A stretch of DNA of 6,303 nucleotides, from positions 1-6,303 of the forward strand of contig NW_021830024.1 in NCBI RefSeq assembly GCF_006345805.1, in the 5' to 3' direction. Each line of letters starts with the position of its first letter. The stretch's first letter is position 1. Positions 675 through 6,159 of this stretch are shown piece by piece. The notes beneath the pieces are model-generated. The model ran no database searches. It was not told the origin of the DNA and was given only the letters and a program-made list of their open reading frames with translations. Position numbers and translations under genes: made by a program. Source of the DNA: Octopus sinensis (lineage: Eukaryota).

Positions 675-980
675 CTAAACAGGCTAATACCTAATTTTGG
701 CATTGAGTGTTATACAAATGCCAGAACTGGATGTCATTGCATTATACCAAAGGTACCATCCACTCTGTCTAAATTTATGACCAGGTACTGCAATAGTCTA
801 GGGCTCAAAAGCCCACGGTGCTTCAATGCCATTCAATAAAAATTAAGAAATCTGCATAAGGTGGAAGTAGATGTGCTCAAAAAGGAACTAGACACCTTCC
901 TCTCCACAATACCGGATGAACTAACAGCTCAACATGAGGTGCAGACGAGGGGAGAGGAATCAAACAACAGCTGGGACAAA
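672..980 (+). pseudogene. Decayed 3' fragment of a LINE ORF2 (CR1/L2-group-like C-terminus)
   Basis: One frame reads ILNRLIPNFGIECYTNARTGCHCIIPKVPSTLSKFMTRYCNSLGLKSPRCFNAIQ*KLRNLHKVEVDVLKKELDTFLSTIPDELTAQHEVQTRGEESNN with a stop at 837-839. It resembles the recalled invertebrate CR1-type C-terminal pattern GLVPN...GPRLFNxLP..RN...FKxxLDxFLxxIPDEP...SNS. Confidence 0.72.
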
Positions 981-1022
981 GGAACATACAGGAGTGGTGA
1001 TGTGAATCACCCCAGACATATA

Positions 1023-2831: not shown

Positions 2832-2864
<33 letters not shown>

Positions 2865-3027
2865 GGCGCAGGAGTGGCTGTGTGGTAAGTAGCTTGCTAA
2901 CTAGCCACATGGTTCTGGGTTCAGTCCCACTGCGTGGCACCTTGGGCAAATATCTTCTACTATAGCCTCGGGCCGACCAAAGCCTTGTGAGTGGATTTGG
3001 TAAACGGAAACTGAAAAGAAGCCTGTC

Positions 3028-3076
<49 letters not shown>

Positions 3077-3155
3077 GGTCCCGGGTTGAGTCGGGGTTAA
3101 CCACAGTAAATAAGGTACTCAATACATAGCAGAGTAAATTAATTTATTTTATAGA

Positions 3156-3213
3156 AGGAGCTTCTACAAGGACTAGAACTGTTTCATTCAAATGAAATCA
3201 TCAGGAAGCTCCT
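3156..3213 (-). ncRNA. Type I hammerhead ribozyme motif (minus strand)
   Basis: AGGAGCUUC-CUGAUGA-UUUCAUUUGAAU-GAAA-CAG UUCUAGUCC UUG-UA^GAAGCUCCU. Perfect 9-bp stem I, intact core, GUA triplet with predicted cleavage between 3165 and 3164. The first pair of stem II is a non-canonical U.U. Confidence 0.72.
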
Positions 3214-3258
3214 GATGATTCATTTGAATGAAACAGTTCTAGTCCTGTAGAAGCTCCT
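3203..3258 (+). ncRNA. Type I hammerhead ribozyme motif (plus-strand mirror copy)
   Basis: AGGAAGCUC-CUGAUGA(3212-3218)-UUCAUUUGAAU-GAAA(3230-3233)-CAG UUCUAGUC CUG-UA^GAAGCUCCU. Stem III is perfect; stem I is bulged. Confidence 0.55.
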
Positions 3259-3268
3259 TCTATAAATA

Positions 3269-3302
<34 letters not shown>

Positions 3303-3531
3303 TTGTGTGCCTGTGTTTGTCCCCCTAGCATTGCTTGACAACCGATGCTGGTGTGTTTACGTCCCCGTCACCTAGCGGTTCGGCAAAAGAAACCGATAGA
3401 ATAAGTACTGGGCTTACAAAAAGAATAAGTCCCGGGGTCGAGTTGCTCGATTAAAGGCGGTGCTCCAGCATGGCCACAGTCAAATGACTGAAACAAGTAA
3501 AAGAGTAAAAGAGTAAAGAGTCTATATATAT

Positions 3532-3681
3532 AGGAGTAGCTATATATAGCCACTCCTATACATAGCTCCAGGTTCAGTCTCACTGTGTGGCATCCTGCGC
3601 AAGTGTCTCCTAGTATAGCCTTGGGCCAACCAAAGCCTTGTGAGTGGATGTGGTAGATGGAAACTGAAAAGAAGCCAGTCG
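3532..3681 (+). mobile_element. 5' half of a family-A SINE with a rearranged head
   Basis: GGTTCAGTCTCACTGTGTGGCATC...AAAGCCTTGTGAGTGGATG...GAAACTGAAAAGAAGCC aligns to SINE A; it is followed by (TA)/(TG) but has no 3' half. Confidence 0.8.
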
Positions 3682-3712
3682 TATATATATATATGTATGT
3701 GTGTGTATGTCT

Positions 3713-3860
3713 TTACTTTCTGAGTTCAAATTGTGTTGGGGTTGACTTTGCCTTTCAGTCTTTCGGGGTCGATAAATTAAGTACCAGTGATACACTGGGG
3801 TTGATGTAATCGACTGATACTCTCCTCCAAAATTTCCGGCCTGATGCCTTTAGACAAAGG
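3713..3860 (+). mobile_element. 5'-truncated SINE of a second family with (ATT)n tail
   Basis: B-box-like GAGTTCAAATT followed by GACTTTGCCTTTCAGTCTTTCGGGGTCGATAAATTAAGTACCAG, which resembles a recalled conserved metazoan SINE central motif; it runs into (ATT)n at 3861. Confidence 0.6.
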
Positions 3861-4077: not shown

Positions 4078-4259
4078 TGTTTCTTTTGCAGATAATTTAC
4101 CACTTGGAGGAGAAAAGAAGAGGTTTTTTCAAGATACCTGGAATATTTATTTAACTACCTGAAATGGTAATTCTTTCTGTAAGGCAGGAATTCCCATAAC
4201 AACACCTTATAAGGAAAAGCATTAAGCGGAAATAAATTATAACATAGAGCTGTGTAAAT

Positions 4260-4597
4260 TATCCACGTGGAAACATAGGTATCTGGATTTCCGCATGGAG
4301 ATGTAGCTGTTTACATATTTTCTTGGATTTATTGCTGTCTAAACAACCACATGGAGAAAAGGGCGTCTGTACTGCTACATGGAGATGTACATCTGCAAAT
4401 ATCCACATGGAGGAAAAGGTGTCTCCTACTTCTACATGGAGATGTACATCTCCGAATATCCACATGGAGACATGGATGTCTACATTCTTACACTGAATGG
4501 AAGCCGTATAAATATCCACATGGAGACATGGGTGTCTATATTTCCACATGAAAACGTAGGTATCTAAATATCCCACATGGGAACATGGGTGTCTATA
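4260..4597. repeat. Degenerate 28-bp minisatellite, ~12 units, consensus about TATCCACATGGAGACATGGGTGTCTACA
   Basis: Core CATGG or a variant at 4266, 4294, 4322, 4350, 4378, 4406, 4435, 4463, 4491, 4519, 4547 and 4576. Confidence 0.85.
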
Positions 4598-4717
4598 TTG
4601 AGTGGGGTCGAGGAGATGGATTGTAACAAGTCTTAGACTCCACCTTCCCTCCTGACCCAAAAGTTAAAAAAAATATTTTAATTTCAACCAATTTATTATG
4701 ATTGAAATTAGTAAGGC

Positions 4718-5063: not shown

Positions 5064-5079
5064 CATCATCATCATCATC
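5004..5079 (+). repeat. (AAT)n/(GAT)n/(CAT)n microsatellite
   Basis: Read directly. Confidence 0.95.
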
Positions 5080-5299
5080 GTTTAGTGTCCGCTTTCTATG
5101 CTAGCATGGGTTGGACGGTTCAACTGGGGTCTGCGAAACCAGGAGGCTGCACCAGGCCCAGTCTGATCTGGCAATGTTTCTACGGCTGGATGCCCTTCCT
5201 AACGCCAACCACTCCATGAGTGTAGTGGGTGCTTTTTACGTGTCAGGCGAGGCTGGCAACGGCCACGATTGGATGGTGCTTTTTACGTGCCACCGGCAC
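5064..5299 (-). mobile_element. 3' portion of a third SINE/LINE-tail family with (GAT)n tail
   Basis: The minus strand reads GGTTGGCGTTAGGAAGGGCATCCAGCCGTAGAAAC...CGTCCAACCCATGCTAGCATAGAAAGCGGACACTAAAC(GAT)n, a recalled retroposon motif. It sits between AAT tracts and has an internal direct repeat GGTGCTTTTTACGTG. Confidence 0.68.
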
Positions 5300-5660
5300 A
5301 ATAATAATAATGATTTCTTTATTAACCACACGGGTTTACATTAAGAAAAACATTATTGACACAGCACAGGACAAAGCAAAGAATGTGTGCGTCTATGTGT
5401 GTGAGTGTGTGTTGTTGTGAGGGTTTTGCGCGTAAACAGGACTAGCAAAATTTTAAAAAATCAACGTATGATCCTCAATAGGGAGGAGATGATCGAGGGC
5501 TCCTCATGGAAAAACTCCACACAAAGAAAAAAAAAACCGTGGGTACCCTCACTTTTGAGGTAGGTGCCTTTTTTCTTTCCTTTTTTTAAATCTACAGGGC
5601 AGTTTTTTAAACTCAGGGCAGGCCCATTAATAATGAAGGCCTCTCCTGTCGAAGACAACA
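5300..5660 (-). mobile_element. Possible 3' UTR/end of a non-LTR retrotransposon
   Basis: The minus strand ends GGTTAATAAAGAAATC(ATT)n, i.e. a poly(A)-signal-like AATAAA just before a simple-repeat tail. No other support; the 5' extent is a guess. Confidence 0.3.
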
Positions 5661-6028
5661 TATTCTTTTATTCTTTTACTTGTTTCAGTCATTTGACTGT
5701 GGCCATGCTGGAGCACCACCTTCAGTCGAACAAATCGACCCCAGGACTTATTCTTTGTCAGCCTAGTACTTATTCTGTCGGTCTCTTTTGCCAAGCTGTT
5801 AAGTTACAGGGACGTAAACACACCAACAACGGTTGTCAAGCAATGGAAGGTGGGGGAGACACACAAAGACACATAAACAGACACACATACAACAAGCTTC
5901 TTTCAGTTTCCTTCTAACAAATTCACTGACAAGGCTTTGGTCAGCCTGAGGCTATAGTAGAAGACACTTGCCGAAGGGGTCACGCAGTGGGACTGAACCC
6001 AGAACCATGTGGTTCGTAAGCAAGCCAC
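5661..6028 (-). mobile_element. SINE family A, copy 4 (minus strand, more diverged, head damaged)
   Basis: Reverse complement of SINE A from the tail (TATTCTTTTATTCTTTTACTTGTTTCAGTC) through the B box (GGGACTGAACC) to AAGCAAGCCAC. Confidence 0.9.
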
Positions 6029-6159
6029 GAGTGTTCAGTTTTTGTTGAACAACCAGAACAAATGATTTGGTTAGATTAATCAGATGTATGTGCCGTACCT
6101 TATTAACTCACTCCCTCCATCAAATCGATGTTTCCTGAATGGATGCAGGTGTCGAAGTG

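Follow-up and report, generated by a model that had tools for sequence, protein, structure and literature searches.

What is the 196-bp segment that interrupts one SINE copy in this window, and how did it get there? The window, the whole 6,303-nt stretch of Octopus sinensis contig NW_021830024.1 analysed here, contains several copies of one tRNA-like SINE. An earlier note had singled out positions 3074-3269 as a candidate microsatellite-targeting Penelope-like element (PLE) insertion nested in one of them, possibly the end of an uncatalogued PLE or of a non-autonomous retrozyme family.

The insert lies in the central (TA)n tract of a SINE copy

The SINE copy at 2855-3530 was aligned with its sister copies at 190-605, 1075-1470 and 5655-6035 (minus strand). 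The insert, 3074-3269, is located within the central (TA)n tract of the interrupted copy (~2865-3521) and is missing from all three aligned sisters (3/3), with the SINE halves colinear on either side, which bears out the proposed nesting (Table 1). A fifth copy outside the alignment (~3527-3700), of which only the 5' half is present, carries a short TA tract at the matching site. The (TA)n sequence described on both sides of the insert was found at 3029-3073 and at 3269-3282, and no target-site duplication is readable inside the TA repeat around 3074-3269. These flanks are consistent with the proposed microsatellite targeting, although they represent a single insertion, in a window where (TA)4+ runs make up 167 of the 6303 bases.

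Table 1 Features of the insert and of the host SINE (positions in the window)
Feature	Positions	Strand	Remarks
Host SINE 5' half	2865-3028	+	tRNA-like head, B-box-like motif at 2918; 142/155 columns identical to sister 207-360
Left (TA)n target tract	3029-3073	.	45 nt; exceeds the tract length of the empty sister copies
3' extension (PLE 'tail')	3074-3143	-	70 nt, on one side only; partner arm absent; no Rfam match at E<=1
Small tail hairpin, RCTC-N11-GAG-TAC	3115-3135	-	similar motif in 4/6 Hydra-clade consensi (by eye)
TATAAAA overlapping AATAAA	3143-3153	-	short end without a tail; limit of the right arm
Left arm of head-to-head inverted repeat	3144-3206	-	fold and alignment
Type I hammerhead motif	3156-3213	-	helix I 3213-3205/3164-3156, core 3204-3198, predicted cleavage between 3165 and 3164
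Inversion point	3203-3213	+	4-bp stem and 3-nt loop 3207-3209; from ribozyme helix I 5' strand and first core bases
Right arm, inverted tail-less copy	3210-3269	+	ribozyme core without matching helix I 5' strand; no plus-strand descriptor match
Right (TA)n/(TG)n tract and host SINE 3' half	3270-3521	+	176/191 columns identical to sister 3' half

The SINEs of the window presumably resemble known octopus SINEs; ARAGORN found zero tRNAs in the window. A CORE-SINE, OR2, has been described in octopus (PMC4758252). Two further observations concern the neighbouring copies. At ~3527-3860 a SINE-like 5' half continues into a 3' half of another type, which suggests that a second SINE family, or a chimeric one, is present, and a direct repeat of ~70-90 bp (~124-197 and ~601-674) flanks the first SINE copy, possibly as an unusually long target-site duplication.

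Other features of the window

The segments ~1240-2045 and ~2025-2834 form a near-identical ~790-bp tandem duplication (718/747 columns, 15 indel events, 8 substitutions) that combines the 3' half of a SINE with unique sequence and a diverged 5' SINE part, and that is either recent or a long-read or assembly artefact. In contrast, two SINE 5' halves of the window differ by 12 substitutions and 1 indel. A stretch at ~681-1001 (+), which we take to be a LINE remnant, matches protein P0001 with 77% identity, and pieces of it share 31/50 (62%) and 19/27 (70%) residues with a predicted Octopus vulgaris protein related to P0001; Pfam returned 0 families for the 3 LINE-remnant proteins. Another relative, P0006 (71% to P0001), is labelled Escherichia coli on a contig of 563 bases, probably through contamination or mislabelling. 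Downstream of a long (TTC)n/(TTA)n pyrimidine tract, a possible short exon bounded by AG and GT (~4093-4165, +) suggests that the repeats of the window lie in an intron. A degenerate 28/56-bp minisatellite occupies 4262-4602, and the segment at ~5079-5300, richer in G+C and enclosed by (TAA)n/(ATC)n tracts, is probably another microsatellite-associated interspersed repeat.

The insert is a head-to-head inverted repeat with a one-sided tail

The two arms of the insert, each ~60 bp, face each other across a loop of only 3 nt (3207-3209). Alignment of 3149-3206 with 3210-3265 gives 56 of 58 identical columns, the two exceptions being one-base indels in T runs without any substitution, and the DNA fold of the insert hairpin reaches -66 kcal/mol (z = -16.6, 0/200 shuffles). 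The 70 nt beyond the left arm lack a partner, and their local-alignment scores against the remaining window are just 28-29 (raw scores, taken without a null distribution). The composition originally described, an inverted segment plus a unique extension of ~70 bp, was thus confirmed.

Such a symmetrical structure could also arise by sequencing or assembly error. The window looks indel-prone, as the ~790-bp duplicates show more indel events than substitutions and the arms differ by homopolymer indels only, so that a long-read fold-back has to be weighed. However, the SINE resumes its original orientation after 60 nt, whereas a fold-back chimera would stay inverted through tail and flank, and the TATA sequence at which the right arm ends is a meaningful stopping point. 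We therefore regard an artefactual inversion as the least credible of the explanations weighed in this work. Since the window appears indel-prone, sequencing error may account for the two arm differences, and the insertion could be young.

The long, near-perfect inverted repeat with TA at both ends would also be expected of a TA-inserting DNA transposon (MITE or foldback), or of a palindromic MITE beside an unrelated 70-bp piece, and O. vulgaris has active families of both Tc1-mariner elements and MITEs (PMC13282606). A DNA transposon or MITE with terminal inverted repeats had been named in advance as an alternative that would overturn the PLE reading; such repeats were not found at the ends of the insert, which score 8 against a shuffled mean of 10.6. 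Furthermore, such an origin would leave it to coincidence that one strand carries both a hammerhead motif, its helix I 9 bp long, and a Hydra-like tail motif, and we consider it very improbable.

The AATAAA that had been pointed out downstream of the ribozyme on the minus strand is present at 3148-3143. It shares bases with a TATAAAA in an AT-rich context and is one of 8 occurrences of the hexamer in the window. It therefore carries little weight and is probably incidental, and its reading as a polyadenylation signal was set aside. MicroRNA and C/D snoRNA readings were likewise rejected, the Rfam matches to the whole window being generic and below the gathering score (MIR4240, 57.7 vs 200 bits). 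Neither a 22-nt tail pattern nor a 25-nt SINE pattern had an exact match in bacterial and archaeal genomes, blastn against phages and plasmids gave no match, and a full-text literature search with four short window motifs returned 0 papers.

The minus strand carries a type I hammerhead motif

Scanning with a type I hammerhead descriptor produced a single match across the window, on the minus strand (3213-3156), with helices I, II and III of 9, 3 and 4 bp. Helix II has a U on each side, the predicted cut follows GUA, and loop III is near-palindromic with 8-9 nt. In dinucleotide shuffles of 3074-3215 the observed stem lengths were reached in 0 of 20,000 cases and any match was obtained in 4 of 20,000, and shuffles of the whole window gave a descriptor match in 4 of 500. 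Rfam made no hammerhead call, its Hammerhead_3 model scoring 13.5 bits (E 1.4) against a gathering score of 48.5. The active fold is predicted to lie 3.9 kcal/mol above the minimum (-11.4 vs -15.3 kcal/mol), with a probability of 6e-5. Because the right arm contains the core without a matching helix I 5' strand, the minus strand can be assigned as the sense strand of the element.

The helix III region of the right arm is a near-palindrome with a predicted dimer energy of -12.8 kcal/mol compared to -1.4 kcal/mol for the monomer (-5.4 kcal/mol for the left-arm version), and its computed pairing fits the dimer model put forward for PLE hammerheads in PMC4209133. A transcript across the insert is predicted to form a single hairpin of -103 kcal/mol that buries the ribozyme motif, and this copy is therefore, judging from the modelled fold, unlikely to act as a ribozyme.

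The traits described so far, namely a type I hammerhead motif (below the Rfam threshold), an inverted 5'-truncated copy and a one-sided tail, are those of PLEs of the EN+ type. Together with the (TA)n target they support the PLE reading, and we conclude that the insert is very probably a PLE 3' end. A non-autonomous family, retrozyme-like or consisting of the pLTR only and moving as a unit of ~200 bp, would also account for a short, non-coding insert carrying a ribozyme motif, and animal retrozymes derive from PLE pLTRs and also exist as monomers (bioRxiv 10.64898/2026.07.22.740005). Retrozymes, however, are head-to-tail repeats with two or more complete hammerheads, while the locus has one complete hammerhead motif, a head-to-head copy and no tandem unit. 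The retrozyme option of the earlier note fails because this defining feature is absent at the locus, and the predicted burial of the ribozyme in the transcript hairpin likewise speaks against a non-autonomous family, which we judge improbable.

A hairpin motif in the tail and its possible counterparts in Hydra-clade elements

We compared the tail by eye with six Hydra-clade consensus sequences in the supplement of PMC8557442. In Hydra-2_Amil, Hydra-2_Ajap and Hydra-1_Crog, a TATA after the ribozyme is followed by an RCTC-N10-20-GAG-N0-3-YAC hairpin, and the 5' start of Hydra-1_Ajap, which was left out when the pattern was built, fits it too; the Hydra-1_Amil and Hydra-1_Obim consensi (2/6) do not. 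The pattern was drawn post hoc, after the sequence of the insert had been seen, and is our own observation, with no published criterion behind it. It has one match in the window, at 3135-3115 within the tail, and none in 12,070 tiles taken from outside the insert. When the 82-nt post-ribozyme region is shuffled, 96 of 100,000 sequences match, 37 of them with an upstream TATA, and a relaxed version of the pattern gives 3 matches outside the insert. The distance from TATA to the end, counted by eye, is 80 nt in the insert compared to 61, 75 and 86 nt in three Hydra consensi, and the Hydra-1_Ajap and Hydra-1_Obim consensi, like the right arm, end at TATA.

The 5' start of Hydra-1_Crog (File S7 of PMC8557442) contains a variant of the hairpin with a possible paired change, which, if real, would support a conserved structure. 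A 9-mer common to the insert and the Hydra-2_Amil tail occurs once forward and five times reversed in 565,614 characters of the supplement text and is weak when taken alone. The words 'hairpin' and 'TATA' do not occur in the main text of PMC8557442, and a literature search, with most subscription papers outside its scope, yielded no description of either the insert family or the tail hairpin.

A far-reaching reading would join these observations. Hydra PLEs of coral, sea cucumber, copepod and octopus might share an undescribed cis-element, TATA plus a CTC...GAG-YAC hairpin, that sets the start of reverse transcription (RT) and engagement with (TA)n; in the octopus family of the insert, helix I would be a programmed snap-back site, and a fixed ribozyme-hairpin cassette of ~200 bp would be inserted again and again at the TA core of a SINE family present in many copies. 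We put this forward as speculation that is rather doubtful as a whole. If true, such cassettes would be a potential source of long double-stranded RNA.

Ribozyme architecture and tail point to a likely place in the Hydra clade

Of the PLE clades, the Hydra clade likely is the one to which the insert belongs. The insert lies in (TA)n (a single case), and its 3' end region carries a canonical hammerhead motif in which helix III is extended. In the supplementary files of PMC8557442, by our count, (TA)n preference is recorded for 26 of 27 Hydra-clade families (File S1/S2), and the spacing between A15.1 and U16.1 is 7-8 nt in all 25 listed hammerheads (25/25). Of these 25 families, 14 flank helix II with a U on either side and 5 have the helix III sequence 'acag..ctgt/ttgt' of the insert. 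Loop III measures 1-3 nt in all 25 tabulated families and is thus shorter in each of them than the 8-9 nt of the insert. Among 56 general metazoan hammerheads (Fig. S3 of PMC4209133), six rows have at least 6 nt between A15.1 and U16.1 (2 Hydra-clade, 3 Aedes and 1 D. willistoni) and 2 of 56 have the double U (Hydra and D. willistoni Penelope), these counts being our reading of machine-read text with lost columns. As extended helix III and the double U also occur in the Drosophila willistoni Penelope, they are enriched in Hydra and not exclusive to it. The U after the CUGANGA core, taken alone, was rejected as a Hydra marker, as it is not Hydra-specific according to the hammerheads compiled in PMC4209133.

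An origin from the end of another PLE clade (Neptune, Penelope/Poseidon, Nematis or Naiad) has several points in its favour: Neptune and Naiad elements are also prone to microsatellites, with octopus Naiads favouring (TA)n (PMC8557442), the D. willistoni Penelope ribozyme has similar core features (PMC4209133), and the insert carries no protein by which the element could be placed. The Neptune affinity suggested in the earlier note nevertheless fits less well, since ribozyme architecture and tail motif indicate the Hydra clade; in Fig. S3 of PMC4209133, the row of Acropora digitifera, whose PLE is assigned to Neptune, shows a hammerhead of the minimal kind, helix III having an insert of 2 nt. 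Canonical hammerheads are reported to be absent from Naiads (PMC8557442), whereas the insert has such a motif. Furthermore, five 11-12-nt motifs of the insert gave 0 matches in the searched portion of the Naiad/Chlamys/Hydra supplement text, in which line breaks can hide matches, and the tail motif matches Hydra consensi. We thus consider another clade unlikely.

Weighing against any firm placement, PLE clades are defined by their proteins, and the insert, a single non-coding copy, has no RT or GIY-YIG sequence, nor is one visible in the window. The Hydra clade is defined by protein signatures (RWK, DKT, a CxCX5C linker, no CCHH) and RT phylogeny, and Neptune by a CX2-5CxxC linker and RT phylogeny, as far as the definitions in PMC8557442 are concerned. 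On balance, the insert likely is what remains of a Hydra-clade PLE after severe 5' truncation, its 3' end with pseudo-LTR and tail, copied from RNA into the (TA)n of an older SINE.

A snap-back model for the inversion

In order to rationalise the structure on the molecular level, we propose a sequence of events. The GIY-YIG endonuclease of the element would nick the (TA)n tract, and RT would start inside the RNA at 3074, ~80 nt past the ribozyme. The template would be uncleaved RNA, because sequence from both sides of the cleavage site is present in the insert. The copy breaks off after ~140 nt; its end coincides precisely with the 5' edge of helix I, where a 4-bp stem closes a 3-nt loop. At this stem the cDNA end may fold back and prime a self-copy of ~60 nt. 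The self-copy would terminate at the TATA of the element, where the right arm does stop, and once it is joined to the (TA)n of the target, just one side would carry a tail. Such a product, without coding capacity, is likely dead on arrival.

Several features of this route have precedents in the literature. Inverted 5'-truncated copies with a tail at one end are a described PLE architecture (PMC8557442), palindromic inverted junctions of rotifer PLEs have been read as self-priming, there on an antisense template (PMC3846280), and an anole PLE in vitro cuts AT-rich DNA and uses mainly uncleaved RNA, with two internal RT start sites bounding the tail (PMC11167929). The same study also lends weight to a different origin of the inversion within the same element, in which each of the two target strands primes a cDNA, one starting at the far site with the tail and the other at TATA without it, and the two cDNAs are joined by a 4-bp overlap: the anole PLE protein acts on both strands, nicking and extending them, has two RT starts and is predicted to form a dimer. 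Dual priming would directly explain why one arm stops at TATA while the other runs 70 nt further. It would, however, allow a spacer of any length, and the 3 nt observed are those of a minimal hairpin loop, which tips the balance modestly towards snap-back. We therefore hypothesise that the inversion likely arose by cDNA snap-back at the 4-bp hairpin on the 5' edge of the ribozyme, with dual priming as a possible, less favoured route.

The tail hairpin and the inversion point at the ribozyme edge offer handles on how PLEs form inverted structures and choose microsatellites, both raised as open questions in PMC8557442. For genome annotation the gain is modest: a protein-free PLE scar of 200 bp can be tentatively placed in a clade through its ribozyme and tail, which helps to annotate octopus repeats. 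The word 'hammerhead' is absent from the main text of one detailed O. vulgaris annotation.

Comparison with known elements

The insert resembles the Hydra-clade PLEs Hydra-2_Amil, Hydra-2_Ajap, Hydra-1_Crog, Penelope-1_NV and Penelope-13_HM (Craig et al. 2021, PMC8557442) in its (TA)n target and in the canonical type I hammerhead motif close to its 3' end, in which helix III is extended and, as is often the case in the clade, a double U is present; Penelope-13_HM is moreover annotated with an inverted truncated copy. It differs from them in having no ORF and a longer near-palindromic loop III; its helix II measures just 3 bp, and no extended sequence identity with the six Hydra consensi was found by eye or motif search.

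In octopus, a Hydra element (PMC8557442) and, for O. vulgaris, 30 recently active Penelope families (PMC13282606) have been reported. The former, Hydra-1_Obim of Octopus bimaculoides, shares with the insert the inferred clade, probably the host genus, the (TA)n target and a short end at TATA, but differs in helices I, II and III and in the 3' sequence, and lacks the tail-hairpin pattern. Identity of the insert with Hydra-1_Obim was therefore rejected, as ribozyme and 3' end differ.

Outside the Hydra clade, the closest structural parallels are the Penelope insertions of Adineta vaga (PMC3846280) and Poseidon PAc of Anolis (PMC11167929), with head-to-head inverted pLTRs, a palindromic junction, an optional one-sided tail and an AT-rich target. 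Unlike the insert, these have tails of ~30-40 bp and minimal hammerheads and are not described there as (TA)n-specific; the 70-nt tail likewise contrasts with the 30-40 bp usually quoted for PLEs (PMC8557442). Neptune and Naiad PLEs share the microsatellite bias, inverted copies and tails, but the Naiads described have no canonical hammerheads and the one Neptune-associated example compared is a minimal hammerhead. Non-LTR (metazoan) retrozymes are, like the insert, non-coding and PLE-derived with a type I hammerhead, but are organised in head-to-tail tandem units that the insert lacks.

Regarding the suggestion that the family is uncatalogued, it appears, at the level of sequence, to be absent from the six Hydra consensi and from the Naiad and Chlamys sets of the one supplement compared, although it may already be catalogued. 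PLE ends of this shape are already known, and the insert likely represents a new family among them.
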